Below, piece after piece: positions 3 to 34,568 of a DNA stretch of 64,000 nucleotides (positions within the stretch are counted from its first letter, which is position 1; the number at the start of each line of letters is the position of its first letter). Source of the stretch: Acaryochloris marina MBIC11017 (lineage in GTDB: Bacteria; Cyanobacteriota; Cyanobacteriia; Thermosynechococcales; Thermosynechococcaceae). The position numbers were made by a program, and so were the translations under genes. The stretch covers positions 3,790,521-3,854,520 of the forward strand of contig NC_009925.1 in assembly GCF_000018105.1 (NCBI RefSeq), given 5' to 3'. The notes beneath the pieces were generated by a model. The model was given only the letters and a program-made list of their open reading frames with translations, searched no databases and was not told the origin of the DNA.

Positions 3-707
3 GTGGCTATTCCCGGGGGACAGTTCACGATGGGCTCGCCAGTAACCGAAACCCATCGTGAGAAAAACGAAGATCCGAAACATGTTGTGGATGTCCCGGC
101 GTTTTTGATGGGGAAGTATCCCATTACCCAAGCCCAGTGGCAGGCCATTATGGGGGACAATCCCTCTAAGTTTCAGGGGGCCAATCATCCCGTCGATCAA
201 GTTAGCTGGTTTTTAGCGGAAGAGTTTTGCCAGAAACTGTCTTTGGCGACGGGGCAAGACTATCGGCTGCCCAGTGAAGCCGAATGGGAATATGCCGCCC
301 GAGCGGGTACCGATACCCCGTTTCACTTCGGTCAGACCATCACCACCGATCTGGCCAATTATGATGGCAATTACGCCTATGACAAAGGCCCCAAGGGCAC
401 CTTCAGAAAAAAGACGGTTCCGGTGGACCAGTTGGCCGGGAATGCCTTTGGGTTGTTCAATATGCATGGTCAGGTTTGGGAATGGTGTCTAGACCATTGG
501 CATGACACCTATGACGGTGCGCCTAGGGATGGTACGGCCTGGGTTGAGCAGGGTGACCCAAAAATGCGCCGAGTGCGGCGAGGCGGATCCTGGTATGACA
601 GTCCCCATGCCTGCCGATCTGCATTTCGCTACCGATCCTATCCCTATGCCTATACGGGGTCTTTTGGTTTGCGCGTGGTTCTGCCTGCCCTAAATCAAAC
701 GGTGTAG
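3..707 (+). CDS. FGE-sulfatase (SUMF1/formylglycine-generating enzyme-like) domain protein, C-terminal part; the 5' end lies outside the window
   Basis: The translation carries the hallmark FGE-sulfatase motifs (GKYPITQAQW, RLPSEAEWEYAARAG, RVRRGGSW, GLRVV). The ORF runs off the window start. It is paralogous to the C-terminal half of the next gene. Confidence 0.8.
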   Translation: MAIPGGQFTMGSPVTETHREKNEDPKHVVDVPAFLMGKYPITQAQWQAIMGDNPSKFQGANHPVDQVSWFLAEEFCQKLSLATGQDYRLPSEAEWEYAARAGTDTPFHFGQTITTDLANYDGNYAYDKGPKGTFRKKTVPVDQLAGNAFGLFNMHGQVWEWCLDHWHDTYDGAPRDGTAWVEQGDPKMRRVRRGGSWYDSPHACRSAFRYRSYPYAYTGSFGLRVVLPALNQTV

Positions 708-827
708 AGGACTGGCTTTGGGGAGAGAATGCGCTAATATCCGTATCACCCTTCTAATCCGAGACATTCCCAAATAGAGCGGATACAGTAGGAATAAGGG
801 TTTTGCAGCGTATTGATATAGGTTGGA

Positions 828-2447
828 ATGGGCATCAAGCGTCGACAGTTTTTGTGGTTCGGGGGGACTGCTGTAATCAGCTTGGCCTCGTCCCAATGGT
901 CTTTCGCCAAATCAGTTCGGGATATTCGCCAAATTGCCCGTCACATTACCGTTCGCATTATGACCCAAGGCCCTTCTGGCTCCGGGGTGTTAATCAAGCG
1001 AAATGACAATATCTACACCGTACTGACGGCGGCCCATGTGATCAAAAACTCCAACCGGGGTGAGGAAGCCTATGTGGAAACCTATGACGGTGAAACCCAT
1101 CTCCTCAATACCCAAATGATGCAGGTGGATGTCAAAGCGGATATTGCGATCGCAACCTTCACTTCCAGCAACAACTATCGCACCACCAACATTGGCAAGT
1201 TTAAAGACCTGGGCATTTTGGATGACATTTATGTCGGTGGTTATCCCCTAGCCGATCAGGCCATTTCCGTCTCCACCATGACCCTAACTCGGGGCGAAGT
1301 GGCCTCCATTGGTGAATTTGAGGATGGCTATGGGTTTTCCTACACGGCCGTCACCAAGGCAGGCATGAGCGGTGGCCCAGTGTTAGATCGCGAAGGTCGC
1401 CTAATTGGGATTCATGGTCGGGCGGCGGGACAGCGCTTACAAGACGTGCGGATTAAAGATGGTTTGAATTTAGGGATTCCGATCTCAACTGCGATCGCAA
1501 CCTTTGGTCTCGACAATCAGTACCGGCCCCTGACCGCTGAGCAACCGGATACATCTGAACCCCAGACCTCTGAACCCTCTGAACCGGAGTCCACCCAAGC
1601 GCCACCGGAGGAGACTCTGCCCGGCCTCTCTCGGTTTGCCTTTGAAGTGGTGGCAGTGAATGCCCAAGGTCAAATCCAAACCCGCAGCCGTCAGTCTGCC
1701 CAATATTATCGCCAGCAGCTAAAACAAGATCAGACCCTGGATATGGTCTATATCCCTGGGGGAAAATTTAGTATGGGCTCTCCGGCAACGGAAGCCAATC
1801 GTCAAGGCAGTGAAGGTCCCCAACACCTGGTCACAGTTCCCACCTTTTTTATTGGCAAATATCCGATTACCCAAGCCCAATGGCAGGCCGTGATGGGGGA
1901 GAATCCGGCCAAGTTTCAGGGGGCAGATCGTCCCGTCGAGCAAGTGAGCTGGCAGGCCGCGACGGAGTTTTGCCAAAAACTATCGGAACTCACGGGCCAG
2001 GACTATCGTTTACCCAGCGAAGCAGAATGGGAATATGCTGCTCGTGCCGGGACTAGCGCACCCTTCTGTGTGGGGGCTACCCTGACCACGGACTTAGCCA
2101 ACTACGACGGCAACTATACCTATGGTCGCGGTCCGCGGGGCACCTTTCGCAAGGCCACAACTCCCGTTGGTCAATTTTCACCCAACCCCTTTGGTCTTTA
2201 TGACATGCATGGCCAGGTCTGGGAATGGTGTCAAGATCATTGGCATGACACCTACAAAGGGGCACCTGCGGATGGATCGGCCTGGGTGAAGGATACGGAT
2301 GTGCGATCGCACCGAGTCAGACGAGGAGGATCTTGGTACGACGGTCCCCATGCCTGCCGGTCCGCCTTTCGCTATCGGTCATTACCGAGTAACTATCAAA
2401 ACTCCTATGGCCTGAGAGTGGTCTGCCAAGAGTTTAAGGATATTTAG
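828..2447 (+). CDS. Secreted trypsin-like serine protease domain fused to a C-terminal FGE-sulfatase domain, with a Tat-type signal peptide
   Basis: The N-terminus has a twin-arginine motif (KRRQFLWFGG). A chymotrypsin-fold protease core follows (TAAHV..., GMSGGPVLDREGRLIGIHG), then a Pro/Glu/Thr linker. The C-terminal FGE-sulfatase domain closely resembles ORF 3..707. Confidence 0.8.
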   Translation: MGIKRRQFLWFGGTAVISLASSQWSFAKSVRDIRQIARHITVRIMTQGPSGSGVLIKRNDNIYTVLTAAHVIKNSNRGEEAYVETYDGETHLLNTQMMQVDVKADIAIATFTSSNNYRTTNIGKFKDLGILDDIYVGGYPLADQAISVSTMTLTRGEVASIGEFEDGYGFSYTAVTKAGMSGGPVLDREGRLIGIHGRAAGQRLQDVRIKDGLNLGIPISTAIATFGLDNQYRPLTAEQPDTSEPQTSEPSEPESTQAPPEETLPGLSRFAFEVVAVNAQGQIQTRSRQSAQYYRQQLKQDQTLDMVYIPGGKFSMGSPATEANRQGSEGPQHLVTVPTFFIGKYPITQAQWQAVMGENPAKFQGADRPVEQVSWQAATEFCQKLSELTGQDYRLPSEAEWEYAARAGTSAPFCVGATLTTDLANYDGNYTYGRGPRGTFRKATTPVGQFSPNPFGLYDMHGQVWEWCQDHWHDTYKGAPADGSAWVKDTDVRSHRVRRGGSWYDGPHACRSAFRYRSLPSNYQNSYGLRVVCQEFKDI

Positions 2448-2469
2448 CAGCCCAGATGGCCCCAAAGAA

Positions 2470-5400
2470 CTAACCCACTAACTCCGGGGTCTTCTGGTCA
2501 ATCAATCCTGCTAGGGTATCGAGTAACTCCTGCTCGTTAAAGGGCTTGGAGAAATAAGCCGACGCACCCAAATTCATGGCCACCTTGCGGTGTTTTTCGT
2601 GACTGCGAGAGGTCAGCATCACAATCGGCAAGTCTTCAAACTGAAGTTGGCCTTTGACTTCTTCCAGTACGCCATAGCCATCCAAGCGAGGCATTTCAAT
2701 ATCACAAACCACTGCCTGTACAGCTAAGCCGCTTTCCAGTTTGTCCACGGCTTCTTGGCCATCCTTGGCCTGTTCAACCTGATAGCCCGCTTTTTCTAGG
2801 GTCAGGGCTAAGAAACGACGGACATTAACAGAGTCATCCACCACCAGGATGGTATTGTCTGAGCTGACGGAGGGCAGAGATTCGATGGGAGGCGTGATGT
2901 CGGTTTGTTGTCGTTCCAGGGACCATTTGAGAATGGACAAGGGGTCGAGGATGGGGACCACGCGACCGTCCCCTAAGACAGTAGAACTTACAAATCCGGG
3001 GGGCATGGGTAAGGGGCTGGCGATGTCGCGAATGGTTACTTCCTGTTCACCCCAGAACCGTTCAATTTCTAGGCCACCGATCTGGTCATCCTCCCCAACT
3101 ACGAGAATAGTGGGTTTGTTAATAACCGGAGTCCCGGACATTTCGGAGAATCGGCGGGTTTGATTAAAGGCCCAATGCTGAGCCAAGTTGATGATGGGAA
3201 TGGAGCGATCTTGCCAGGTCAACGTGTGAGACGCTTCGATCCTTTGAATTTGGTCTGATTGCAATTGCAAAAGTTCGCAAATGCTTTCACTCGGCACCGC
3301 AAAGATGAATCCTGAATGCTCGAGCAGCATGACGCGCAAAATTGAGAGGGTATAGGGAACTGAAATGGTGAAGGTGGTGCCTACACTCTGTTCAGTATGG
3401 ACCTGAATTTCACCTCGGATGTCGCGAAGATTGTTGCGCACAACATCCATGCCGACGCCGCGTCCAGAGATTTCAGTCACTTGGTCCGCTGTACTAAAGC
3501 CCGGTTCAAAAATACAGTCTAATAAATCGGCTTCAGAGAGTTGAGAGACTTCCCACTCCGGAATGCCCATGGCCTGCAAACGATCACGGACCTTATCAAG
3601 GCGAATCCCTGCACCATCATCGCTCAGGGTAATGACTGTTTGTGCCCCTCGATTACGGGCTTGAATCGTAATCGTGCCTTTTGGCGCTTTGCCAATGGAA
3701 GTCCGGCGTTCCTGGCTGCCAATCCCATGATCAAAGGCATTACGAAGTAGATGATTAAGGGCATCTCCTAGGGGGTCCAGTACTGCTCGGTCAATCAGGG
3801 TGGCGTCCCCTTCCATCAACAGGTTGACCGGCTTATTAAACTGAACGCTCAAGTCTCGAATCATCCGGGGAAACCGTTTGACGATTTCTCGGAAAGGCAC
3901 CATCTGGGTGCGGGTGACATTCGTCTGCAATGAGCGGGTGGTTTGGTTAATATCGCGGACCGCCTGACCCATATCCTGTAGGGTCAGTTCAATATCGGAA
4001 CCCACCTCTTGTAACTGAACAATCGTTTCGATTTGGTCTTGGGCAATCAGGTGCAAGTCCGTATACTGGTCCATTTCTAGGGCATCAAATTGCCCGGATC
4101 TGGGCTCAGCCAGTTGTTCGGGTTGAGCGGGAGCGGCTTCTTCGGCAGGGACGATGCCTTCCATAGAGGCGCGGTCGTACCATTGCTGAAGTTGTGTATT
4201 GGAGGCTTCTAACTGACGAATCCGCTGTCGAATCAGTTGGGTGTAGGCTTGCAACTGCTCAAAACGCAAATTGACCGTATTCCGATCTAGAATCAACTTC
4301 CCAAACAGGGTATTAAATTGCTCCAGTTGTTCCACGGGAACCCGCACCGTTTTACCGCTGAGGGGCTTCACGGGAGCAGCAGAAGGCTGGGCTGCCGTGG
4401 TTTGTTCCAAAATTTGAGCCGCACTCTCCAGGGTTAAGGGGAGATCAGCAACTTCTTCTTTGATTGTTGAGTCTGCCGTAGATTCAACCAGATCGGAAGT
4501 CACTTCAAAGGCCTGCTGTAGATCCGCTAGCTCCACCGAATCCTGCAGATTGGCGAGGGCATCTGCGTTTAACAAGTCTTCTGGCGCAAAGTCATCAGTA
4601 GCGATTTCGGCAGGAAATTCCAGCGCTGGCTCGGGCAACTCGACTGATAAGGCATCGGCTAAGTTGGCGATTGCTGGATCATCTAGAGCAATGTTCTCGA
4701 AATTGACCGCTTCTGGTGCTTCAGGACCAGGTAGATTCATGGCTAAATCATCCGCTAGATCAGCGACAGCCGAATCCTCAAGGGCCACATTCTCCAGATT
4801 GACCGCTTCTGGTGCTTCAGGACTAGGCAGATCCGTGGCTAAAGCATCCGCTAGATCAGCGACAGCCGGATCATCAAGGGTAATCTCTTCTAGCGCTTCG
4901 GCGTTAGGCAGATCGGTGGCTAGGGCATCTGCTAAGTGGGCAACAGCCGGATCATTAAAATCAAGGTCTTCTATGGGGTCCGCTTCTATCGATTCAGGAT
5001 TAGGTAGATCCGTTCCTAAAGCACCTGCGAGATCGGCGACAGGGGCATCCTCTAGGTTAATCTCTCCTGGCAACTCAATGGTACCAAAGTCAGCTTGCAG
5101 AGCTGATAGGTCGACGGAGCCAAGGGCAGTTTCAAAGTCGGCTTCGGGGCTGGAGGCCATCGTTGGCGTAAAGTCCAGCAGTTCATGGGGGAGCTTCTCG
5201 AAACTGCGGCGCAGGACCAGCGCATGGGACCGTCGCCAGGTTTTGAGGGCGGCCATTGAGAGTTCAGGAATCTGCTCCGGCACGACCTGGGTCGCCAGTT
5301 CCTGGATTGATTGGCAGAGCTGAATAAAAGAGTCTAAATTGGCCATATGGCCGAAGGCCACCAATTCTTCGGCGGTCATCGCGAGTTCAGCCGCTAGTTG

Positions 5401-5937
5401 AGGGGCTGGCAAGGTGCCAAAATAGCCTTCAATGCGATCGAGAACAGCTTCCACCCCATCCTCAAACATAAGTAACGCTGGATCGATTTCCTCTTCGCCA
5501 CCACTGAGAAGTGCATTTTCGTCTGCATCTGTTACCTCGCCCAAATGGGTCTGCAGTTGGTCGAAGACGGGGGTGATATGGGCAGCCATCCAGTCAGCAT
5601 CAATGTCAGCCCCTTGCTGATAGCGATCGCCTACTTGTCGTAAGCAGTCTAAGCCCTGCAACAGGAGGGTTTCTACCTCTGTTGCGATGATTTTGGAGGC
5701 ATGGTGTACCCGCAGAATCTTGAAAAAATCTTCCAGACGGTGGGCCACTTTACTCAGATCCATCAGCCCCATCATCGCCGCCCCCCCTTTGACAGAGTGG
5801 GAGGCTCTGAGCGCTTCATCGAGTTGTTCGGGGTCTGCTGCGTTGGTGGCTAGACCCAGCAAAACGCGTTCAATCTTTTCGTAGCAGTCTTCCGCTTCTT
5901 CGAGAAATTTGAACTGGACTTGTTGTTCTTTATCCAT
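2470..5937 (-). CDS. CheA-like hybrid histidine kinase with the domain order Hpt, acidic repeat linker, HATPase, CheW-like, C-terminal receiver. It matches the PilL/HmpE type of the type IV pilus chemosensory system
   Basis: The Hpt motif is HSVKGGAAMMGL. The HATPase boxes are LRNAFDHGIG, DDGAGI and GRGVGMDVV. A CheW-like region sits after the kinase core. The C-terminal REC domain is VVDDSVNVRRF...DIEMPRLDGY...KPF. The gene is last in a co-directional chemotaxis-like operon. Confidence 0.9.
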   Translation of the reverse strand: MDKEQQVQFKFLEEAEDCYEKIERVLLGLATNAADPEQLDEALRASHSVKGGAAMMGLMDLSKVAHRLEDFFKILRVHHASKIIATEVETLLLQGLDCLRQVGDRYQQGADIDADWMAAHITPVFDQLQTHLGEVTDADENALLSGGEEEIDPALLMFEDGVEAVLDRIEGYFGTLPAPQLAAELAMTAEELVAFGHMANLDSFIQLCQSIQELATQVVPEQIPELSMAALKTWRRSHALVLRRSFEKLPHELLDFTPTMASSPEADFETALGSVDLSALQADFGTIELPGEINLEDAPVADLAGALGTDLPNPESIEADPIEDLDFNDPAVAHLADALATDLPNAEALEEITLDDPAVADLADALATDLPSPEAPEAVNLENVALEDSAVADLADDLAMNLPGPEAPEAVNFENIALDDPAIANLADALSVELPEPALEFPAEIATDDFAPEDLLNADALANLQDSVELADLQQAFEVTSDLVESTADSTIKEEVADLPLTLESAAQILEQTTAAQPSAAPVKPLSGKTVRVPVEQLEQFNTLFGKLILDRNTVNLRFEQLQAYTQLIRQRIRQLEASNTQLQQWYDRASMEGIVPAEEAAPAQPEQLAEPRSGQFDALEMDQYTDLHLIAQDQIETIVQLQEVGSDIELTLQDMGQAVRDINQTTRSLQTNVTRTQMVPFREIVKRFPRMIRDLSVQFNKPVNLLMEGDATLIDRAVLDPLGDALNHLLRNAFDHGIGSQERRTSIGKAPKGTITIQARNRGAQTVITLSDDGAGIRLDKVRDRLQAMGIPEWEVSQLSEADLLDCIFEPGFSTADQVTEISGRGVGMDVVRNNLRDIRGEIQVHTEQSVGTTFTISVPYTLSILRVMLLEHSGFIFAVPSESICELLQLQSDQIQRIEASHTLTWQDRSIPIINLAQHWAFNQTRRFSEMSGTPVINKPTILVVGEDDQIGGLEIERFWGEQEVTIRDIASPLPMPPGFVSSTVLGDGRVVPILDPLSILKWSLERQQTDITPPIESLPSVSSDNTILVVDDSVNVRRFLALTLEKAGYQVEQAKDGQEAVDKLESGLAVQAVVCDIEMPRLDGYGVLEEVKGQLQFEDLPIVMLTSRSHEKHRKVAMNLGASAYFSKPFNEQELLDTLAGLIDQKTPELVG
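4560..5070 (-). repeat. Intragenic tandem repeats in the CheA Hpt-kinase linker, about six copies encoding acidic D-P-A-V-A-D-L-A-D-A-L-A-T-D-L-P-x-P-E-A-P-E-A units
   Basis: Near-identical blocks of roughly 100 nt recur in the DNA (gaccgcttctggtgcttcagga...gctagatcagcgacagccg). The protein shows the matching repeated motifs PAVADLADALATDLP. Confidence 0.8.
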
Positions 5938-6026
5938 AGTGCTGAGGCGATGATAGGTCGCTAATGTCGATGAGGGGCATCCTGTATCTCAATCCAGAGG
6001 GCTCGAAAGGCAAGCGCTCGAAGGTT

Positions 6027-12496: not shown

Positions 12497-15400
12497 ATGC
12501 CTGAATTGTCTAGTATTCTTGATCTTCGTTTGGTTCTAGAAAGCGTTGGTGCGCTCCTATTGGGGACAGCTACCGTCGATACCCTGCGTCAACGGCAGTG
12601 GCAGCAGCAACTCACATCTGCCTCTGAAGAGCAACAACGGTTGCTAACGGCGGATCAAGCTCGTCTGCAGACCGAGCAACAAACCCTTCAAACCGATAAC
12701 GAGACGTTAACCGCGGCCCTTGCCAAGGCTAAACAGGTGGTGGAGGCTCAAGAACAGAGCGTTGAAGAGTTAAAGCAGCAGGTCAGCCAGCTACAACAGC
12801 AGCAACGGGCTTGGGCAGACGAGAAACAAGCCCAAGATCAGCAGCAGAAGACCTTAGAAACTGAACTAGATACTCAAAAAGCGCAATGCCAACAGCTCCA
12901 GGCTGAATTGGATGAGCGGGCTGCTACGACTACGGAGTTAGACAATCTGGCTGCTGCGAAAACGCAAGCGGAAGTGGATCTGCGCCAGGCTCAATCCAAA
13001 ATGCGGGGTTTGCAACTCCAAGTGGATACCCTAACCCAAGCACAACAGCCATTGCAGGCCAAGGTAACGGCAGCAGAGCAGACAGCCGCTGTTGCTACCC
13101 AAGCTAAGACCCAACTGGAACAGCAGCTTGCCCAGTTGACTCAGACGCAACAGCAAGACCAATCCCAGGTGACGCAAGCCCAGGCAACGATTCAAAGTCT
13201 TGAACAACAAGTGGCCAGCCTGACCGCGACACAAAAAACTTTAGAAAATCAGCTGCAACAGCAGTCTCAACGGGATCGTCAGCGTCAGAACTTAGCGACG
13301 GAAGTGGCTATACTCCAAGATCAAATTGCGACCCTCACGACCCAAAACCAGAGCCTAGAGGATGATCGAGTCGCTGTTCAGCAAGAGAAAGATAGTCTAA
13401 CCCAGCGATTAGAGACCTTAACGGCCACCCATGACCAGCTAGCCACCACCCAGGCTGAAACGGTTCAGCAGCTGGCTGCTACGACTCAAACTCATCTGCA
13501 GTTGGAGCAAGCCCATGCTCAGCTAACAGCAGAGTTAGAAGGGCTCCATCATGCGCAGACGGATCTCTCTACCCTTCGCCAAGAAAAACAAACCCTGGAG
13601 TCTCTGGTTACTGAGCAAAAACAGGAAATTGACGATTTAACGGGACGACTGGCCACGGCCAAAGATCTGCAACGGCAGTTGGCAGAGGACTATGAAACAG
13701 CTCAGACCTCCTTGTCTGCTTTAGAGACCCAAGACACAGACTTCAACACAGAGCTGGCGGCGGATCTCCAAGATGCCCATGCTCAAATCAAGACCCTTCA
13801 GCAAAATCTGGAGACCCTGACCCAACAAAATCAAGATCTGCGTAACCAGATCGCTGCTGCTCCACCTGAGCAGTCCCAAGCCTTACAGGAACTCGAACAA
13901 GCCCTGCAAGCTGCCCAATCCAGAAATCAACAGCAACAACAACAGCTGCAGGACCTAGCCCAAGAGAAAGAGTCCCTTGCTACTTCCCTGCAAACCGCTC
14001 AATCCAACTCCACTGAGCTACAGCAGCAGATTGCATCCTTGACTCAGCAACACCAGGAATTAGAGACCAGTTTGGAGCAAACCCAAACGGCAGATTCCAG
14101 TCTGATTACGGAACTCACGACTAATCAGCAGCAGCTCACCACTGAACTAACTGACGCTCAAGAACTGATTACCAACCTGCGCCAGCAAATCTCAGATTTG
14201 GAAACCGCTCAAGAGGCTCAACCCACAAGCACAGATATTGAGGCCCTGACTCAAACCAATCAAACCCTATCGGCAGAGCTGTCAGACTCACAAACCGCCT
14301 TGGCGACCCTGCGTCAGCAACTTCAGACTCTGGAGCAGCAACAGCAACGCTTAGAGACGGAGCAAGGTGCAGTCGCCAACGACCAGTCCAAAACCATTGC
14401 TGCTTTGGAAGCCCAACTGCAAACCCTGCAACAAGAACGGGAGACTCTCAATCAGCAGGTGGCGGAATATCAAGGCCATCTTCCATCTTTGCAAGAGCAG
14501 ATTACGGATTTAGAACAACAGCGACAAACTCTGGAGTCCTCATTACAAGGTGCTGAAGCGCAAGCGCAGGACCTGGAACAGCAGCTCAATACCCTGAATC
14601 AAGGGCAAACCCAAACTCAGCAAGATTTACAGGCTCAGCAGCAACAGGTCATTACCCTAGAACAACAGGTACAGGCCCTGGAAGCGGAGAAGACTCAATT
14701 AGCATCTGCTCTCAAAGTCGCTGAAGAAGCCCCTATCCCTTTGCAAGAAGCCTTACAGTCCGCTCAAACGGAACAGACCCAGTTGGAGCAACGGCTGACA
14801 GCACTCACCCAGCAGAATCAGGACTTACAAACTGCGATCAATCAAGCCTCGGATACTTCTGCGTTGGAGACAGAGCTGGCGGCAGTGAAGGCGGAGAAGC
14901 AGCAATTAACTGTAACCTTACAAGCTGCTGAAGCCGCCTCGTTGCCTTTGCAAACAACCTTGCAAACTGCACAAGCTGAACAGGTTCGTTTAGAGCAACA
15001 GCTCGCCGCACTAACAGAGCAGAATCAGAGCTTGCAAGTTTCTCTAGAACAGGCCTCTGATACCTCAGCTTTGGAGGCAGAGTTGGCGGCAGCGAAGGCA
15101 GAATGCGATCGCATCACCCAATCCCAACAGACAGCAGAAACCACCATCCAAACCCTGACCGCCCAACTGCAAGAGCTAGAGTCCCTACCTGAGCAGCTCC
15201 AATCCCTGACCCAAGCGAAAGCTCAGCTCGAAGCCGATCTCCAGCAGGCCACCACCATAACGGCAGAAGTGGACCAGTTAACGCAGGCTCAGCAAGATTT
15301 ACAGGCGGCGCTATCGCAGGCTGAGGAAGAGAAACTAGGGTTGCGATCACAACTCCAAACCTTAGAACAGCAGGTCGTGGATCTGCAATCGGCGACGTCA

Positions 15401-29505: not shown

Positions 29506-30474
29506 ATGATTACTCATCAAACCCTCTGTAAGAAACATCATTCGTTGAAGCGCAACTGCTTAAAATTCTTGAGTGTGAGCAGTGTTCTTCTTATCCTTAT
29601 CAGTGGATGCAGTTCGGATAGCTCTAAATCCAAATCGAAGGCCCAAACAGAGGATCCGGCAGCAGCAAGTTCTCCAGCGCCGCTCAACTCAACGCCGACA
29701 AAATTAAAGTTAACGGTCGCTTCTCCTGAGTCTTTGCGTGTTAAACAGGGGGATTTGATTGTTAAGGGGCAAATTTTGGTCGATCGGACTGCAGCCCGCC
29801 AAAATATTATGGCTCGTCGTCAGAAGGTGCAACAAGAAGTGGCGCTTTTAACGGCGACTGAACAGATTCCGACGGCTCCAACCAATACCAATGCCGCAGA
29901 GGTTCAGGTACAGCAAGCCCGAGAACGGGTTCGTTTAGCGGATGCTGCGATTCAAGATTATCTGGCTAAATCTCCTTACACTGATTTGGCCCGCCAAACC
30001 CTGCCTCTACCGACAGAGGAGAAACAGTTAGCACAGTTGCAGTTCGCCAAAACATCAGCCCAAGCCCAGTTAGAGCAGGCTATTGCCCAACGTAAGTCGT
30101 TGCAGGCATCTCAACAAGCTCGACAACAGGGGCAGGCGGTTGCGTCTAGTAAAAAGATTCAACTTCTCAATGAGCTGAAAACCATTGAGGCCCAACTCCA
30201 GTCGTTTCAGGATATTCTGTCTCCCCATGATGCGATTGTGCAAAAGGTCGACTGGCAAAAAAAGGGAAAGAACGGGACAACGGTCGAACTTGCCCTAGCC
30301 GTTCATTCCCTGTCGGATCCGATTCCATCCTTGTCGAATGGCACCAATAATCCTCTGCTATCGGTGCCGAGTCCTGCCCCTGCTAGCGGACAACCCTTTC
30401 CCAGTCTTCCTGCACCCCTAGCCCCCACTCCCCAACCGCCAGGGCAGGTTCCGACTGCTGCTCAGCAGCCGTGA
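29506..30474 (+). CDS. Hypothetical lipoprotein with coiled-coil and a biotin-lipoyl/HlyD-like N-terminal motif and a Pro-rich C-terminus
   Basis: The lipobox is LILISGCSS. The segment KLKLTVASPESLRVKQGDLIVKGQILVDR resembles the hairpin-adjacent lipoyl-like domain of membrane-fusion proteins. A Q-rich coiled coil follows. Confidence 0.5.
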   Translation: MITHQTLCKKHHSLKRNCLKFLSVSSVLLILISGCSSDSSKSKSKAQTEDPAAASSPAPLNSTPTKLKLTVASPESLRVKQGDLIVKGQILVDRTAARQNIMARRQKVQQEVALLTATEQIPTAPTNTNAAEVQVQQARERVRLADAAIQDYLAKSPYTDLARQTLPLPTEEKQLAQLQFAKTSAQAQLEQAIAQRKSLQASQQARQQGQAVASSKKIQLLNELKTIEAQLQSFQDILSPHDAIVQKVDWQKKGKNGTTVELALAVHSLSDPIPSLSNGTNNPLLSVPSPAPASGQPFPSLPAPLAPTPQPPGQVPTAAQQP

Positions 30475-30672
30475 TGGAGCAGTTTAATCCGGTAGCCATG
30501 GGCTAGATCGCTTGAGAACTATGGCGGTTATAAATTGAGTATGTTAAGGTCAATGACTGGATCAATGGCGTGCTGTGAGGCAATGGTTCAGATTCTGAAT
30601 ATCTGACTGGCACTTTGACGCTGAAAATTGCAGATCAGTGTACCGCCAAACCCACAAGGTTGATTCACGATT

Positions 30673-30744
30673 GCTCGATTAGCTCAGAGGGAGAGCACCG
30701 AGGGGCCATCTCGGGGGGCGTAGGTTCGAATCCTACATCGACAA
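30673..30744 (+). tRNA. tRNA-like gene with a canonical D-arm and T-arm and a GCC (Gly-like) anticodon in a non-canonical loop (G32 G33). Acceptor pairs 1:72 and 2:71 are mismatched, so this may be a pseudo-tRNA or a substrate needing 5' repair
   Basis: The gene reads GCTCGAT-TA-GCTC-AGAGGGA-GAGC-A-CCGAG-GGGCCAT-CTCGG-GGGGC-GTAGG-TTCGAAT-CCTAC-ATCGACA-A. The cloverleaf was folded by hand and 5 of 7 acceptor pairs form. Confidence 0.5.
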
Positions 30745-30747
30745 AAC

Positions 30748-30821
30748 TGAAAGCTAGCTCAGTTGGTTAGAGCATCAGACTCATAATCTGACGGACACAG
30801 GTTCAAATCCTGTACTTTCCA
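30748..30821 (+). tRNA. tRNA with a CAU anticodon (elongator Met or lysidine-Ile2 type); acceptor pairs 1:72 (U-C) and 7:66 (C-A) are mismatched
   Basis: The gene reads TGAAAGC-TA-GCTC-AGTTGGTTA-GAGC-A-TCAGA-CTCATAA-TCTGA-CGGAC-ACAGG-TTCAAAT-CCTGT-ACTTTCC-A, followed by CC. It is very similar to bacterial elongator tRNA-Met apart from the acceptor ends. Confidence 0.55.
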
Positions 30822-30823
30822 CC

Positions 30824-30912
30824 GCCCGGTTACGGGCACCTCGTTTGGGACGAGTTATTTCATCTGGTACGGGAGCAATCCCAAGGTGGTTCGAATCCGC
30901 TAAGACAGCACC
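30824..30912 (+). ncRNA. tRNA-derived or tRNA-like element carrying a Pro(UGG)-type anticodon arm and a T-arm but no canonical D-arm or acceptor stem, with an ~30-nt insertion at the variable-arm position
   Basis: It contains CTCG-TTTGGGA-CGAG (a Pro-UGG-like anticodon arm with G37), then GGTGG-TTCGAAT-CCGCT (T-arm). The 5' side forms only a GCCCG-GTTA-CGGGC hairpin. Confidence 0.3.
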
Positions 30913-31234
30913 CGGTTGTTGGTGTCGCGTTGAGTGGGTCACCTGGTGATCCACCCAACAATAGCCAAAGGCCAGCGCGATCGCAGTTGATGATCGGCTT
31001 GAGTAGGGTCCTTTGCAGGGCAAAGTCTGGCGTTCCCTCCAGACTTTGCCCTAGCGAACGCCCTATTTGTTGGCGGTTGGACCCATGCTTAATCTTCGGG
31101 TTGAGTTGCGGTTCTGCTCCACCTTAATTCAGCCAGTCACGGGCGATGGCCCGCACTGTAACTGTTGATGCCAGCAGCTTAGGGTGCCTTTAAAAGTGCA
31201 GATGGACCTGCACGAGAAGAAGAAGGAAATATCA

Positions 31235-32767
31235 ATGTTTAAGTCTTTTTACATTAAGCCCCATGAGCGGGGCATGTTGTTCTATCGCAGTAAGTTTGAG
31301 ATGTTTTTGCTGCCGGGTACCCATCGCCGCATGGGGTGGCATTGGCAGGTGAAGACCTTTGATTTAAATCAGCCCCAAGCCCAGATTGACCATTTGGAGC
31401 TGCTATTGCAAACCCATGCCCACAGTATGAATGAGTATTTTACGGTGGTGCGCACGGTTCATAATCAAGCTGCCTTAGTGCGATTGGGACAACAATGGTG
31501 CACGATTGGTCCCAACCAGCTGCAAGCGTTTTGGCGTGGCTTTATTGAGGTAGAAGTGCATCTATTTAATCTGGATGAAGGGATTGACCTGCCGTCTCAG
31601 TTTGTCCAGCGATTGCGAGATGTATCGCTACCGGATTTGAATCTAGTCTCAATTCCTGAATCTCAGCTAGGGATGCTCTATGAGCAGGATAATTTTGTGC
31701 GGCCTCTCGCGTCTGGAGAGTATGGGTTTTGGACCTGCGATCGCAAAGTCAGTATTACCCGCTATGATCGCACTCGTCCCGATCCAGATTTTACGTTTGT
31801 GGACGTACTGGTCGATGATCATCCCGATTTTGTCACCAGTCACTGTGAATTCGTGCAGTTAGGCAATCAGGAGGTTGCCATTGTTCGCCATCAGGGCAAA
31901 GTGATTAGGATTTTGCCCCCCTGCAGTCGCCAGTTGTTCTGGCAAGGGGTTGCTGTTGAGGTGATTGATATTAGCGATGATGCCAAGCTCTCACCTACAT
32001 TGGTGGCTGAGTTGGTGGCTGGGGTACCCGAGGTATTGGATTTAGCCTATGAGGCCCTGTATATCTTGGAAGTCCCGGCCCAGCATTTAGGATTGCTGTA
32101 TGAAGCCAGCGCTTTTGTCGATACCCTTTCTCCCGGCTGGCATGTCTGGTGGACTTTTGGCCGAGCCTGGAAAACGGAAATTGTGGATTTGCGTTTGCAA
32201 ACCCTAGAAGTCTCTGGCCAGGAAATTTTATCCAAGGATAAGGTGTCCCTGCGTCTAAACCTGACAGCGGGGTATCGGATTACGGATCCGGTACAGGCTA
32301 AAGCTGGCTTGAGCAATATTGAGGATTATCTCTATAAAGAGCTGCAATTTGCTCTACGTTCGGCCGTGGGGACCAAGTCTCTAGATCAACTCCTAGAAGA
32401 CAAGGGGGCGATTGATGCCAGCGTCTCTGACTATATCCGTGAGAAAACCGAGCAATATGGAGTTGCTATCGCATCTGTCGGTGTCAAAGACATCATTCTG
32501 CCCGGTGAGATGAAGTCGATTCTCTGTCAGGTGGTGGAAGCGGAAAAATCCGCCCAGGCTAACGTAATTCGTCGTCGAGAGGAGACTGCTGCTACCCGCA
32601 GTATGCTCAACACCGCTAAGGTGATGGAGAGTAATCCCGTGGCCTTGCGCTTGAAAGAGCTGGAGGTGCTGGAACGGATTGCGGACAAAATTGAGCATAT
32701 TCATGTCAATGGCGGTCTCGATAGTATCTTGACTGAGATGATCCGCATCAACGGAACTAGAGAATAG
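31235..32767 (+). CDS. SPFH/band-7 (stomatin/HflC-like) domain protein, apparently with two SPFH-like regions
   Basis: The ATG at 31235 follows AAGGAAAT. The N-terminus FYIKPHERGMLFYRSKF resembles the start of an SPFH domain. The C-terminal ~200 aa (KDKVSLRLNLTAGYRITDPVQA...GVAIASVGVKDIILPGEMKSI...) is a typical band-7 core plus coiled-coil tail. Confidence 0.7.
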   Translation: MFKSFYIKPHERGMLFYRSKFEMFLLPGTHRRMGWHWQVKTFDLNQPQAQIDHLELLLQTHAHSMNEYFTVVRTVHNQAALVRLGQQWCTIGPNQLQAFWRGFIEVEVHLFNLDEGIDLPSQFVQRLRDVSLPDLNLVSIPESQLGMLYEQDNFVRPLASGEYGFWTCDRKVSITRYDRTRPDPDFTFVDVLVDDHPDFVTSHCEFVQLGNQEVAIVRHQGKVIRILPPCSRQLFWQGVAVEVIDISDDAKLSPTLVAELVAGVPEVLDLAYEALYILEVPAQHLGLLYEASAFVDTLSPGWHVWWTFGRAWKTEIVDLRLQTLEVSGQEILSKDKVSLRLNLTAGYRITDPVQAKAGLSNIEDYLYKELQFALRSAVGTKSLDQLLEDKGAIDASVSDYIREKTEQYGVAIASVGVKDIILPGEMKSILCQVVEAEKSAQANVIRRREETAATRSMLNTAKVMESNPVALRLKELEVLERIADKIEHIHVNGGLDSILTEMIRINGTRE

Positions 32768-32806
32768 AGCCGATCGGGCATCGGCTCCACACTGAAAAGG
32801 CAAACG

Positions 32807-33250
32807 ATGGAAGCTGTAATCTTGGTGGGTATTCAGGCTACGGGTAAATCGACGTTTTATCACCACCAGTTTGGACGCACCCATGTGCGGATCAACCTGG
32901 ATATGTTGAAAACACGACATCGTGAGCAACAGTTTTTGGATACCTGCCTAGTCACCCGCCAACGGTTTGTGGTGGATAACACGAATCCTACCCCTGCTGA
33001 GCGACAGCGGTATATCCAACCCGCTCAACAACAGGGTTTTTCGATTACGGGGTATTACTTTGAATCGAAGTTGGCAGCGGCTTTGATTCGGAATTGCGAT
33101 CGCACGCCTGACCAACGCATTCCAGACAAAGGGATTCGCGGGACAGCCTCTCGCCTGATCTTGCCTACCTATGATGAGGGGTTTGACCAGCTTTTTTCCG
33201 TTCGTCTTCTTCCTCATCAACAATTTTCGGTTGAGGATTGGCAATTATGA
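32807..33250 (+). CDS. Small P-loop kinase resembling the kinase domain of T4 polynucleotide kinase (AAA_33/PNK-like 5'-OH polynucleotide kinase), with no phosphatase domain
   Basis: The Walker A is ILVGIQATGKSTFYHHQF (compare T4 Pnk ILTIGCPGSGKSTWAREF). The Walker B-like motif is VVDNTN (T4: IIDDTN). Lid arginines are present. The gene is 147 aa and its stop overlaps the next gene's start. Confidence 0.65.
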   Translation: MEAVILVGIQATGKSTFYHHQFGRTHVRINLDMLKTRHREQQFLDTCLVTRQRFVVDNTNPTPAERQRYIQPAQQQGFSITGYYFESKLAAALIRNCDRTPDQRIPDKGIRGTASRLILPTYDEGFDQLFSVRLLPHQQFSVEDWQL

Positions 33251-34008
33251 AATTTACTGAACTCGATCAAACCTTGAGGATCTATGAAACCGCTTATGAC
33301 CTCTGCGTTCTGCCTGGGCTGCAGATGGTCGCTCGGTTAGATGGACGGAATTTTACTCGGTTAACGAAAGAAACCCTCGATTTAGATGCTCCCTTTGATG
33401 CCACCTTTCGAGATGCCATGGTGGCAACGGTTCAGCATTTGATGACCTGTGGATTTCGAGTCCTTTATGGCTATACCCAAAGCGATGAAATCTCTTTACT
33501 GCTGCACCCAGACGAGCAGACCTTTGCTCGTAAGCTACGTAAACTCAACTCCGTGCTTGCAGCGGAAGCTAGTGCGAAAATGTCGTTGATCTTAGGCTGT
33601 ATAGCAGTTTTCGACTGTCGAATCTCCCAACTGCCAACGGTGGATTTAGTGGTCGACTACTTCCGATGGCGACAAGAAGATGCCCATCGCAATGCCCTCA
33701 ATGCCCATTGCTACTGGATGTTGCGTAAAGGGGGTGATTCAGCGGGCACTGCAACCCAGAAATTAGAGGGATTATCCGTTGGCGATAAAAATGAATTGCT
33801 GTTTCAACTGGGGCAGATGAACTTTAACGACTTACCCCCCTGGCAAAAACGAGGAGTGGGCTGTCTTTGGCAGTCGTATCCAACGGCAGGTGTTAACCCT
33901 GTTTCAGGAGAAGTATCTCAAGGGACGCGAACGAAAATCGGCGTTGAGCTTAACTTGCCGATGAAAGAGCACTACAGGGAATTTATCCTTAAGCGAATGA
34001 CGCTCTAG
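33247..34008 (+). CDS. Thg1-like protein (TLP), from the tRNA-His guanylyltransferase superfamily of 3'-5' nucleotidyltransferases
   Basis: The N-terminus MKFTELDQTLRIYETAYDLCVLPGLQMVARLDGRNFTRLTKE...YGYTQSDEISLL matches the conserved Thg1/TLP palm-domain motifs (KFEY-like, V-R-[IL]-DGR-x-F, Y-x-QSDE). The ATG overlaps the upstream kinase stop as ATGA. Confidence 0.75.
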   Translation: MKFTELDQTLRIYETAYDLCVLPGLQMVARLDGRNFTRLTKETLDLDAPFDATFRDAMVATVQHLMTCGFRVLYGYTQSDEISLLLHPDEQTFARKLRKLNSVLAAEASAKMSLILGCIAVFDCRISQLPTVDLVVDYFRWRQEDAHRNALNAHCYWMLRKGGDSAGTATQKLEGLSVGDKNELLFQLGQMNFNDLPPWQKRGVGCLWQSYPTAGVNPVSGEVSQGTRTKIGVELNLPMKEHYREFILKRMTL

Positions 34009-34568
34009 TCCTGAGGTAAAACCCTAAGCCAGGGCTTATGGGCTCGGCGGCGCTCTAAACTCATTTCTAAGCCATAGGCTTTAAATTCTTGTTCACTGTA
34101 ATATTCCCGGAACCGGGCTAAAGGGACACGGGATCGACCATCTAGAGAGTGAACAATAGAAGTCGGAAGACGGACATCCCCGCCTAAGTGAACAAAGGCT
34201 TCTTCCACTGTCATCCAGGGGCGTTTGGAATCGCTAACTTCTGTGGGAATGGCTTGTTCTAAACTGCTGAGTTTATCGGTTAGGCCCTTAACCATATTGC
34301 CGGGCTTGATATTCGAATTTTGCTTTGATTTCTGTAGTTTCCCCATCCATACTTGAAACAGAGAGCCGACATACTGGAAGATTCGCTTGAGGATTCGCCC
34401 ACAGACTTGCAGAATACTGCCAACCCCAGCCCCTTCTTGACTAGATGGGTTGTTATGGGAAGCGATAGCCGCACTAGACCAGCCGCAATGAGCACAAACT
34501 TGACGACCGGATTTGAGAGGAGGGCCTAAGCGATTGGAACAACGGGGGCAGGTTTCCAGCATAGTCAA
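34005..34568 (-). CDS. Hypothetical protein with an N-terminal zinc-ribbon (CPRC...CAHC)
   Basis: There is a Cys4 pattern CPRCSNRLGPPLKSGRQVCAHCGW at the N-terminus. The rest is uncharacterised. Confidence 0.5.
   Translation of the reverse strand: MTMLETCPRCSNRLGPPLKSGRQVCAHCGWSSAAIASHNNPSSQEGAGVGSILQVCGRILKRIFQYVGSLFQVWMGKLQKSKQNSNIKPGNMVKGLTDKLSSLEQAIPTEVSDSKRPWMTVEEAFVHLGGDVRLPTSIVHSLDGRSRVPLARFREYYSEQEFKAYGLEMSLERRRAHKPWLRVLPQD

Follow-up and report, generated by a model that had tools for sequence, protein, structure and literature searches.

Thg1-like proteins (TLPs) use ATP or GTP to activate a 5'-monophosphate, after which they add nucleotides in the 3'-to-5' direction, templated by Watson-Crick pairing; where a tRNA acceptor stem is truncated, its 5' strand is rebuilt in this way. 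Kinases of the polynucleotide kinase (PNK) clade phosphorylate the 5'-OH of a polynucleotide with the gamma-phosphate of an NTP. Two TLPs, BtTLP and MaTLP, were found to favour 5'-truncated, 5'-monophosphorylated tRNAs when ATP is present, and for both of them Watson-Crick templated 3'-5' addition to 5'-truncated tRNA was shown (PMC3061083). In a comparative-genomics study the PNK/Thg1 neighbourhood was the most persistent association of bacterial Thg1, and it was proposed that the 5'-phosphate used by Thg1 is made by the kinase (Anantharaman, Iyer & Aravind 2010, Biol Direct 5:43; PMC2904730). Cyanobacteria are mentioned 0 times in the text of that paper, and a 2019 review of TLPs does not mention the kinase partner (PMC6471195).

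We analyzed a stretch of 64,000 nucleotides from Acaryochloris marina MBIC11017 (hereafter the window), in which a gene for a PNK-like kinase is directly followed by a gene for a TLP (Table 1). The initial annotation of this DNA knew of no characterised kinase-TLP operon in cyanobacteria; the operon type and the logic behind it were published in 2010 (PMC2904730). Judged by its sequence, the locus is a real and ordinary instance of this known, putative RNA 5'-end repair module.

Table 1. Positions of the kinase-TLP cassette and its neighbours in the window.
Feature	Position	Strand	Remarks
tRNA-like element 1	30672-30745	+	2.0 kb upstream of cassette
tRNA-like element 2	30748-30823	+	2.0 kb upstream of cassette
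SPFH/Band_7 (slipin) gene	31235-32767	+	ends 39 nt upstream of kinase start
Hairpin GAGCCGAT-CGGGC-ATCGGCTC	32767..32787	+	directly after SPFH stop codon, without T-run
Kinase ORF	32807..33250	+	ATG start, 147 aa (ORF list)
Shine-Dalgarno GAGGA for TLP	33233-33237	+	inside kinase gene
Kinase/TLP overlap ATGA	33247..33250	+	contains kinase stop TGA (33248-33250); translational coupling
TLP gene	33247..34008	+	253 aa; ORF list had 33238..34008, TTG, 256 aa
Right cassette edge	34005..34008		TLP stop codon, 4-nt overlap with end of convergent ORF
Convergent 187-aa ORF	34005-34568	-	its end overlaps the TLP stop codon by 4 nt (ORF list)

Homologues of the TLP begin at MKF, and its start was therefore placed at the ATG at 33247. 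This shortens the 256-aa protein first described to 253 aa, and leaves the ATGA overlap with the kinase gene as it had been reported. The translational coupling that had been claimed from this overlap is borne out in relatives, as stop and start overlap at more than 50 of 63 homologous kinase-TLP junctions, by 11 nt (ATGAARTTTGA) in 43 and by the 4-nt ATGA in 5. A promoter and terminator scan was uninformative, its counts being at or under shuffle expectation; between the SPFH gene and the kinase it called no terminator-like site.

The TLP carries the Thg1 catalytic (palm) domain PF04446 (E 6.5e-28, 97.7 bits against a cut-off of 29.2), with residues 9-130 spanning profile positions 3-130 of 130, and the C-terminal helical domain Thg1C, PF14413 (E 1.7e-16, 60.9 bits against a cut-off of 26.3). 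It lies inside the Thg1 superfamily and has the conserved palm motifs, as annotated: D32 (in DGRNF), S79-D80-E81 (in SDEIS) and FDCR at 122-125 are at least 95% conserved among 72 homologues, and D32 and D80/E81 align with the matching motifs of MaTLP and BtTLP (phmmer, PDB). The metal-binding palm carboxylates of human Thg1 we take to be D29, D76 and E77. In phmmer searches of the PDB, MaTLP (5axk; E 8e-25, 90.9 bits) and BtTLP (4kgk; E 5e-20, 75.0 bits) scored above human Thg1 (E 4e-18, 68.7 bits) and Candida Thg1 (59.6 bits); by these scores the protein appears nearer to the characterised TLPs than to eukaryotic Thg1, by a modest margin. With MaTLP and BtTLP it shares the Thg1 and Thg1C architecture and the aligned DGRNF and SDEIS catalytic motifs, and by analogy templated 3'-5' repair of 5'-truncated tRNA would be its expected activity (PMC3061083). 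The relationship is distant, however, with about 30% identity to the plasmid TLP genes of B. thuringiensis (tblastn). BtTLP is itself encoded on a plasmid, where it adjoins SLOG and GIY-YIG genes and has no PNK kinase neighbour, an observation that counts against a repair model with a kinase.

The TLP studied here falls in a kinase-linked bacterial clade whose members are tightly conserved, at 57-81% identity across phyla. It matches PHROG 4717, and distant TLPs of the BtTLP type (about 30% identity) are frequent in phages (151 records) and on plasmids. No close relative of the clade was found on viral contigs, and with the phage and plasmid TLPs this distant a phage origin of the clade was rejected.

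Profile searches assigned the 147-aa protein to Pfam AAA_33 (E 4e-11), its top NCBIfam match was the kinase region of PNK-3'Pase (E 1e-12), and the kinase domains of PNKP were its sole matches in the PDB (phmmer, E 2e-8). The Walker A motif GIQATGKST occupies residues 8-16, of which G8, G13, K14 and S15 do not vary among 31 homologues, and VVDNTN occupies residues 55-60. In the phmmer alignment the catalytic Asp D32, which follows strand 2, falls on the Asp of the PNKP NRD motif and the Walker-B-like DNTN (57-60) on the DNTN of PNKP, and both D32 and D57-N-T-N are invariant in the homologue alignment; the PNKP Asp matched by D32 is presumably the general base for the 5'-OH. The lid arginines R95 and R99 (RxxxR) are invariant in kinase alignment A1, and in a wider set of 63 sequences only R99 of the two is at least 95% conserved. 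An EGFD motif lies at residues 124-127. The AF2 model of the kinase had a pLDDT of 94.2, and in Foldseek the ranks 1-17 were all polynucleotide kinases (PNKP, Mucorales kinases and C. thermocellum Pnkp; E 5e-12 to 5e-7, TMq 0.75-0.83), with PFKFB, PSTK and gluconokinase placed below them. With Pfam, NCBIfam, phmmer and fold in agreement, sequence and predicted structure make the protein a PNK-clade kinase, as initially proposed, and not a member of an unrelated NTP-kinase family.

The likeness to T4 PNK that had been pointed out holds for the Walker motifs (GIQATGKST/VVDNTN), but T4 Pnk (1ly1) is a more distant match (Foldseek rank 38, TM 0.63) than mammalian PNKP (1yj5, 3zvl), C. thermocellum Pnkp (4gp6) and the stand-alone Mucorales kinases (9drz, 9d8a), with which the P-loop fold is shared at a whole-protein TM of 0.75-0.83. 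The Walker A motif, catalytic Asp, DNTN and lid arginines of known polynucleotide 5'-kinase domains are all kept, whereas the protein is a stand-alone domain without a phosphatase or ligase module and its identity to them is just 18-29%. The nearest solved kinases, those of PNKP, are DNA kinases, and this counts against an RNA-repair model.

In one case (L096) the kinase homologue is flanked by an SbcD-like and an SbcC-like gene and has no TLP, which keeps DNA ends among the possible substrates of the kinase. Should the pair use DNA or something other than tRNA, for instance by adding 5' tails to other nucleic acids or mending their recessed 5' ends, 'tRNA repair' would be the wrong label. This would fit the SbcCD-like operon, the DNA-repair PNKP domains at the top of both the structural and the sequence matches, and the broader RNA recognition noted for TLPs (PMC6471195). 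We find it improbable, given that the biochemically tested TLPs all use tRNA-like acceptor helices (PMC3061083) and that the accessory genes found beside the cassette elsewhere, namely Hen1, Pnkp and RlaP, are RNA-repair genes. A literature search found no published assay for this kinase family or for the kinase-linked TLP clade.

All pairing counts refer to the best 80 homologous loci returned by one genome scan. In 73 of these 80 the kinase gene immediately precedes the TLP gene on one strand, and the pairing spans at least 8 phyla (Cyanobacteriota, Chloroflexota, Bacillota, Bacteroidota, Planctomycetota, Pseudomonadota, Spirochaetota and Actinomycetota), which is far beyond chance. A reciprocal check of three kinase homologues found the TLP downstream in two of them. 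Co-occurrence in other genomes, which the initial annotation had put forward as a check, is thus clear; kinase-TLP fusions, looked for on the same advice, were absent from the 120 best homologues of each protein, and the one candidate, a 403-aa ORF in L017, was an out-of-frame shadow ORF. Neither a family placement elsewhere nor a lack of co-occurrence, either of which was to count against the original proposal, was found.

No third conserved gene family accompanies the cassette in 81 loci, and the flanking ORFs scanned in the window contain no ligase or phosphoesterase domain. Individual loci do have suggestive neighbours: the cassette directly adjoins Hen1-Pnkp in L039, two RlaP nucleotidyltransferases and a PemK/MazF toxin lie next to the cassette or the TLP in L010, L014 and L018, and in L016 a PemK toxin is found between kinase and TLP. 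tRNA genes were rejected as partners, as any tRNA was present in the flanks of just 10 of the best 80 cassette loci and absent in the other 70.

Both genes of the cassette are intact and translationally coupled, their catalytic residues are kept, and they have no further conserved partner. We consider it probable (roughly 0.6) that they constitute a self-contained, horizontally spread two-gene cassette for the repair of RNA 5' ends. An RNA that had lost 5' nucleotides and been left with a 5'-OH, as from metal-independent ribonucleases and toxins, would be phosphorylated by the kinase, and the TLP would then adenylylate the 5'-phosphate end and fill in the missing nucleotides with the 3' strand as template. 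The substrate would most likely be tRNA, or possibly some other RNA in which the 5' end of a helix is recessed. Since there is no 3'-end healing enzyme or ligase, the cassette could mend 5' truncations only. RNase P miscleavage leaves a 5'-phosphate and thus requires no kinase, and the near-obligatory coupled kinase argues that the natural substrates have 5'-OH ends and arise by ribonuclease damage, not by RNase P miscleavage. That no natural source of 5'-OH, 5'-truncated tRNA is known in these organisms counts against the model. The constraint to 5'-OH substrates is concrete and testable, and was already implicit in the 2010 paper (PMC2904730).

Maintenance of tRNA-His is a further role that was considered, in which the TLP would restore or add G-1 opposite C73 and the kinase would merely widen the range of usable ends. 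In vitro, TLPs from bacteria and archaea add a templated G-1 to tRNA-His (PMC3061083, PMC6471195), and a tRNA-His gene lies upstream of the cassette in two Planctomycetota loci (L032 and L035). Both of these genes encode G-1 normally, however, and there is no tRNA-His nearby in 78 of the best 80 loci. Moreover, RNase P products have a 5'-phosphate, so that the obligatory kinase partner would be left unexplained, BtTLP prefers N+1 repair to -1 addition by 5- to 160-fold (PMC3061083), and the patchy distribution of the cassette does not suit a core role. A function in tRNA-His maintenance is thus unlikely.

The closely related contig L089 keeps the full synteny, with exactly the kinase and the TLP missing: about 20 nt separate the SPFH stop from the 187-aa convergent ORF, and the hairpin behind the SPFH gene forms the left boundary of the missing 1.2-kb segment. 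The cassette is present, absent, inherited and lost as a unit, and the presence/absence polymorphism relative to L089 is clean. Its GC content (48-49%, against 48.5% for the window) gives no compositional sign of recent transfer, and a base composition that matches the genome implies that it is not a recent arrival. The connection with the SPFH gene suggested by the initial annotation was not sustained, and SPFH was rejected as a third component: among the best 80 loci an SPFH homologue adjoins the cassette only in the two closest (L001 and L002), the slipin gene is widespread in cyanobacteria and elsewhere unlinked to TLP, and the synteny is kept in L089, where the cassette is missing.

The tRNA-like genes with defective acceptor ends that had been noted upstream are indeed mismatched and on the same strand, but their proposed functional link to the cassette fails. 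They are modules of a structured RNA of about 620 nt with three tRNA-like modules, located 5' of the slipin gene. In module 2, U1-C72 and C7-A66 are mismatched, and in module 1 of the window the positions 1-72 and 2-71 are irregular. Because loop length at the anticodon position is variable (4 to 7 nt), the modules are not decoding tRNAs. Rfam searches of the upstream RNA matched the generic tRNA model alone; YrlA, at 19.7 bits, was far under its 69-bit threshold and was rejected as its identity. In Chroococcidiopsis a type XIII retron RT adjoins the upstream RNA; a retron link was rejected, as the remaining genomes examined lack this neighbour.

Conceivably, the cassette is co-transcribed with the roughly 620-nt RNA, in one operon with the tRNA-like genes and SPFH, and edits or repairs the 5' acceptor ends of the tRNA-like genes, so that the irregular 5' strands of the acceptor-like helices are restored or kept up. 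All of these genes share one strand with short gaps and no terminator called between SPFH and kinase, and modules 1 and 2 do have irregular or mismatched acceptor positions. If true, a natural substrate of a bacterial TLP would be known for the first time, and mitochondrial tRNA 5' editing would have a counterpart in bacteria. It is nevertheless very unlikely. In L088, L089 and L090 the RNA is found with the slipin gene, and the sequence examined there contains no kinase or TLP; the same 1-72 and 7-66 mismatches occur in L089, which lacks the cassette, whereas the stem is fully paired in L001, which has it; and cassette-bearing cyanobacteria (L003-L009, L045 and L064) have neither a tRNA-like gene nor an SPFH gene nearby. 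The variable anticodon-position loops also speak against tRNA editing, and an RNA whose mismatches are unchanged in relatives without the cassette argues against its being the substrate. That the cassette follows the slipin gene and the tRNA-like RNA in this clade reflects where it happened to insert, and not a functional link. The upstream RNA is more unusual than the cassette, and as a tRNA mimic may merit separate study.

Finally, the same chemistry could be conflict-driven, the cassette being a mobile counter-measure against ribotoxins that generate 5'-OH ends (MazF/PemK, HEPN-type, or phage- or competitor-delivered tRNases) and not housekeeping quality control. Its patchy, cross-phylum distribution at 57-70% identity between phyla, its behaviour as an indel in the comparison with L089, PemK/MazF toxins beside or inside it in 4 loci, the adjacent Hen1-Pnkp in one, and the abundance of more distant TLPs in phages and on plasmids are in line with this. 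Against it, no toxin gene is consistently linked to the cassette in the 81 loci and the toxin neighbours are anecdotal, the genomes being TA-rich; viral contigs hold no close relative, and the base composition is that of the genome and not of a recent arrival. The PADLOC-DB 2.0 models gave no match for kinase, TLP or SPFH, and membership of a known anti-phage defence system was rejected. We regard a conflict-driven role as possible, with the odds against it.

The repair cassette as we envisage it has parallels in several known systems. In amoebozoan mitochondrial tRNA 5'-editing (Dictyostelium DdiTLP3), a TLP likewise rebuilds the first acceptor-stem nucleotides from the 3' strand (PMC6471195). 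That process depends on genomically mismatched tRNA genes and a nuclease, with no kinase implicated, whereas the mismatched tRNA-like modules here occur independently of TLP, as in L089, and bacterial tRNA genes have no need of mitochondrial-type 5' editing (PMC3061083). With Pnkp-Hen1 and T4 Pnk-Rnl1 the cassette has in common the logic of a 5'-kinase that feeds a nucleotidyl-transferase needing a 5'-phosphate, but it has no ligase, 2',3'-phosphoesterase or methyltransferase. The end would be rebuilt by templated 3'-5' polymerisation and not rejoined, which makes the cassette analogous to healing-and-sealing systems and not a member of them. The closest counterpart is the PNK-Thg1 neighbourhood (PMC2904730): although the MACRO-domain or RNA-ligase gene of its subsets is absent here, the two families and their order of action are the same, adjacency, strand and coupling match, and nothing essential differs. 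To this neighbourhood our locus adds one further instance and a clean empty-site comparison.

The kinase and the Thg1-like protein (TLP) are each encoded by an intact gene; the two genes are coupled, their catalytic residues are conserved, and they are gained and lost together. Both reading frames reported in the initial annotation are present at the positions listed in the table, and its two kinase motifs, GIQATGKST (residues 8-16) and VVDNTN (residues 55-60), were confirmed. By a mechanical call the longest reading frame of the TLP opens at TTG 33238; we set the start at ATG 33247, since the homologues begin with MKF, and GAGGA is located 10 nt 5' of this ATG. Once the start was set there, the ATGA overlap previously read at the junction was also recovered, with the kinase stop TGA (33248-33250) sharing bases with the TLP start codon.

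The Thg1-like assignment of the second protein is borne out by its matches to Pfam Thg1 (97.7 bits) and Thg1C (60.9 bits) and to PDB sequences, where the Methanosarcina TLP was best (E 8e-25), with the B. thuringiensis TLP (E 5e-20) and human Thg1 (E 4e-18) lower. Its DGRNF (D32) and SDEIS (D80, E81) motifs align with those of these structures, and their conservation across 72 homologues is at least 95%. The kinase matched Pfam AAA_33, its best NCBIfam match was the kinase part of a PNK-3'-phosphatase model, and its only sequence matches in the PDB were mammalian PNKP kinase domains (E 2e-8), with D32 opposite the Asp of the NRD motif and DNTN opposite DNTN. An AlphaFold model (alignment of 31 homologues) had a pLDDT of 94, and its top 17 Foldseek matches (TM 0.75-0.83) were all polynucleotide 5'-kinases, i.e. 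PNKP, Mucorales stand-alone kinases and C. thermocellum Pnkp. The NCBIfam and PDB matches and the predicted fold thus support the proposed PNK-family membership. As to the suggested likeness to T4 Pnk, the polynucleotide-kinase fold stands, but T4 Pnk itself is only at rank 38, behind the three groups named. Since profile and PDB evidence, and for the kinase its predicted fold, place both proteins as claimed, the TLP falls within the Thg1 superfamily and the kinase outside unrelated NTP-kinase families.

Co-occurrence of the two families across genomes, suggested earlier as a check, was clear from a survey that took one genome per species. The best 80 loci, with TLPs 57-81% identical to that of the window, span at least eight phyla (Cyanobacteriota, Chloroflexota, Bacillota, Bacteroidota, Planctomycetota, Pseudomonadota, Spirochaetota and Actinomycetota), and a kinase homologue (40-89% identity) was found upstream of the TLP on the same strand in 73 of them. 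The two genes are directly adjacent in 71 of these loci and separated by a single foreign gene in two (L016, L069). Among 63 junctions, 43 have the 11-nt overlap ATGAARTTTGA and five, including the window's clade, the ATGA overlap. When ORFs within 5 kb of the loci were clustered, the kinase and TLP were the only conserved families, other recurrent clusters being shadow ORFs or single-lineage synteny. Conversely, a TLP was found downstream of two of three sampled kinase homologues. The third (59% identical, L096 1739-6002) has no TLP; its neighbours are a Metallophos (SbcD-like) gene on one side and SMC_N/Rad50-zinc-hook (SbcC-like) genes on the other, and from this location the kinase family may also serve DNA-end processing.

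The two genes form a discrete cassette, whose links to the SPFH gene and to tRNA are local accidents. Four near relatives share the gene order desaturase, 322-aa ORF, ~760 nt of non-coding DNA, SPFH, kinase and TLP, followed on the right by a 185-aa ORF, a glyoxalase gene and a DUF2396 gene, all on the minus strand. The metagenome contig Ga0209185_1000140 (L089) has the same genes in the window's order (desaturase, 322-aa ORF, structured RNA, SPFH with 85% identity, convergent 187-aa ORF, glyoxalase, DUF2396), and from this otherwise complete synteny the kinase and TLP are missing, leaving ~20 nt between SPFH and the convergent ORF. This is a natural empty site (L089 6641-6661 vs. 32767-34008 in the window) without the 1.2-kb kinase-TLP segment. 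In L089 the space between the convergent genes contains an inverted repeat, GAGCCAAT...ATTGGCTC, both arms of which are similar to sequences on the flanks of the window's cassette. The 322-aa and 187-aa flanking ORFs had no Pfam match and are syntenic in all close relatives. The SPFH gene is of the 'slipin' type and is found widely in cyanobacteria. The association proposed for it was not upheld: an SPFH homologue adjoins the cassette in only 2 of the 80 best loci, L089 keeps SPFH without the cassette, and no kinase or TLP gene lies within 5 kb of any of three other slipin loci examined.

The proposed link to the neighbouring tRNA-like genes was not supported either. In L089, without the cassette, module 2 has the same mismatches (1-72 and 7-66) as in the window, whereas in L001, with the cassette, the acceptor stem is fully paired; the 'defective' acceptor ends are uncorrelated with the TLP. 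Other cassette-bearing cyanobacteria have no tRNA-like gene nearby. Upstream of the cassette in two Planctomycetota (L032, L035) there is a tRNA-His(GTG) gene, and because G-1 is encoded opposite C73 in both genes, the normal bacterial arrangement, this proximity looks like insertion beside a tRNA gene rather than a functional link.

As modules, the two tRNA-like genes form part of a larger conserved RNA, which is composed of three tandem tRNA-like modules and a 3' domain. RNAalifold gave 185 pairs in 28 helices with 93.4% of cells paired, and compensatory changes in 65 pairs, compared to 22.4 ± 3.5 in shuffles and 16-21 with partners slid. The anticodon-position loops (4-7 nt) differ in length and sequence between genomes while the stems covary, so the modules are tRNA mimics rather than decoding tRNAs. 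Rfam matched the RNA with its generic tRNA model only and has no family for it, and literature searches yielded no description of it. The RNA adjoins the slipin gene whether or not the genome has the cassette; it does so in L088 (Chroococcidiopsis thermalis PCC 7203), L089 and L090 and is 2.4 kb away in L087, and none of these four has the cassette within the sequence compared. In L088 (CP003597, 2496-4213) the RNA is preceded by a ParE-toxin pair and a retron-type reverse transcriptase of 347 aa (PADLOC RT_XIII, E 3e-148), which stop 94 nt short of it. No reverse transcriptase was seen beside the RNA in the other genomes examined, and the one in L088 is therefore probably an insertion beside a tRNA-like hotspot.

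Coordinates of the cassette, its flanking ORFs, the structured RNA and related features
Feature	Sequence	Position	Strand	Remark
322-aa ORF	window	29506-30474	+	Pro/Gln-rich, N-terminal signal or lipoprotein-like sequence
Structured non-coding RNA	window	~30568-31187	+	~620 nt; RNAalifold, eight sequences
RNA 5' domain	window	30574-30652	+	
tRNA-like gene 1 (cloverleaf module)	window	30672-30745	+	Rfam tRNA 41.7 bits
tRNA-like gene 2 (cloverleaf module)	window	30748-30823	+	Rfam tRNA 60.4 bits
RNA third module	window	30825-30900	+	three hairpins and T-arm
RNA 3' domain	window	30908-30927 with 31166-31187	+	280 nt, closed by this 20-bp helix
Kinase ORF	window	32807-33250	+	147 aa
TLP ORF	window	33247-34008	+	ATG start, 253 aa
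187-aa ORF	window	34005-34568	-	gene end overlaps TLP stop codon by 4 nt
RNA homologue	L001	~4537-5304		
RNA homologue	L002	~5220-5985		
RNA homologue	L081	~3235-3995		
RNA homologue	L083	~3226-3992		
RNA homologue	L084	~3241-3985		
RNA homologue	L087	~1946-2564		
RNA homologue	L088	~4307-4900		
RNA homologue	L089	~4382-5119		
RNA homologue	L090	~519-1087		
RNA homologue	L091	~13622-13895		nhmmer match, only 5' part, near contig end
tRNA-His(GTG)	L032	7304-7375		
tRNA-His(GTG)	L035	4698-4771		

Polynucleotide 5'-OH ends are phosphorylated by PNK-clade kinases. Templated 3'-5' addition by TLPs repairs 5'-truncated tRNAs, in assays where 5'-monophosphate substrates were used with ATP present for activation (PMC3061083). 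In the cassette, the kinase would convert a 5'-OH end to the 5'-phosphate needed by the TLP, which would then rebuild the missing 5' nucleotides. An obligatory kinase implies that natural lesions carry 5'-OH ends, and this points to metal-independent RNases as their source and not to RNase P miscleavage.

Gene context at other loci fits RNA repair. In an uncultured proteobacterium (L039 862-6029) the kinase-TLP pair is directly followed by Hen1 (Hen1_L and methyltransferase) and a full Pnkp (kinase, phosphoesterase and ligase); two RNA-repair systems thus stand side by side. Three Anaerolineae TLP loci without the kinase (L010 68-3140, L014 1766-4844, L018 4575-6480) have a PemK/MazF-type toxin 5' of the TLP and two RlaP (RNA-repair Pol-beta) nucleotidyltransferases 3' of it, and in L016 (6997-8759) the gene between kinase and TLP is a PemK toxin gene on the opposite strand. 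A TLP together with a nucleotidyltransferase is also present on a Thiodictyon plasmid (L092). PADLOC had no match for the cassette, and ORF clustering within 5 kb of the loci linked no toxin consistently to it. The physiological role may be either housekeeping or conflict-driven.

The initial reading had the protein families and the operon logic right; its claim to novelty does not stand, because Anantharaman, Iyer and Aravind in 2010 already described both pairing and logic. They found PNK/Thg1 to be the most persistent Thg1 neighbourhood in bacteria, with subsets that include MACRO and RNA-ligase genes, and proposed that the kinase supplies the phosphorylated 5' terminus for Thg1 (PMC2904730). 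A 2019 review of the field (PMC6471195) does not mention a kinase, and literature searches turned up no assay of either the kinase or the pair. Unlike the TLP of the window, the B. thuringiensis TLP, the one characterised bacterial TLP whose genomic context was examined, has no kinase neighbour. The cassette resembles Pnkp-Hen1 and T4 Pnk-Rnl in coupling a healing step to a nucleotidyl-transferase, but is not a member of these systems as it contains neither ligase nor phosphoesterase. The module was already known as a computational prediction, and the cassette is an ordinary example of it.
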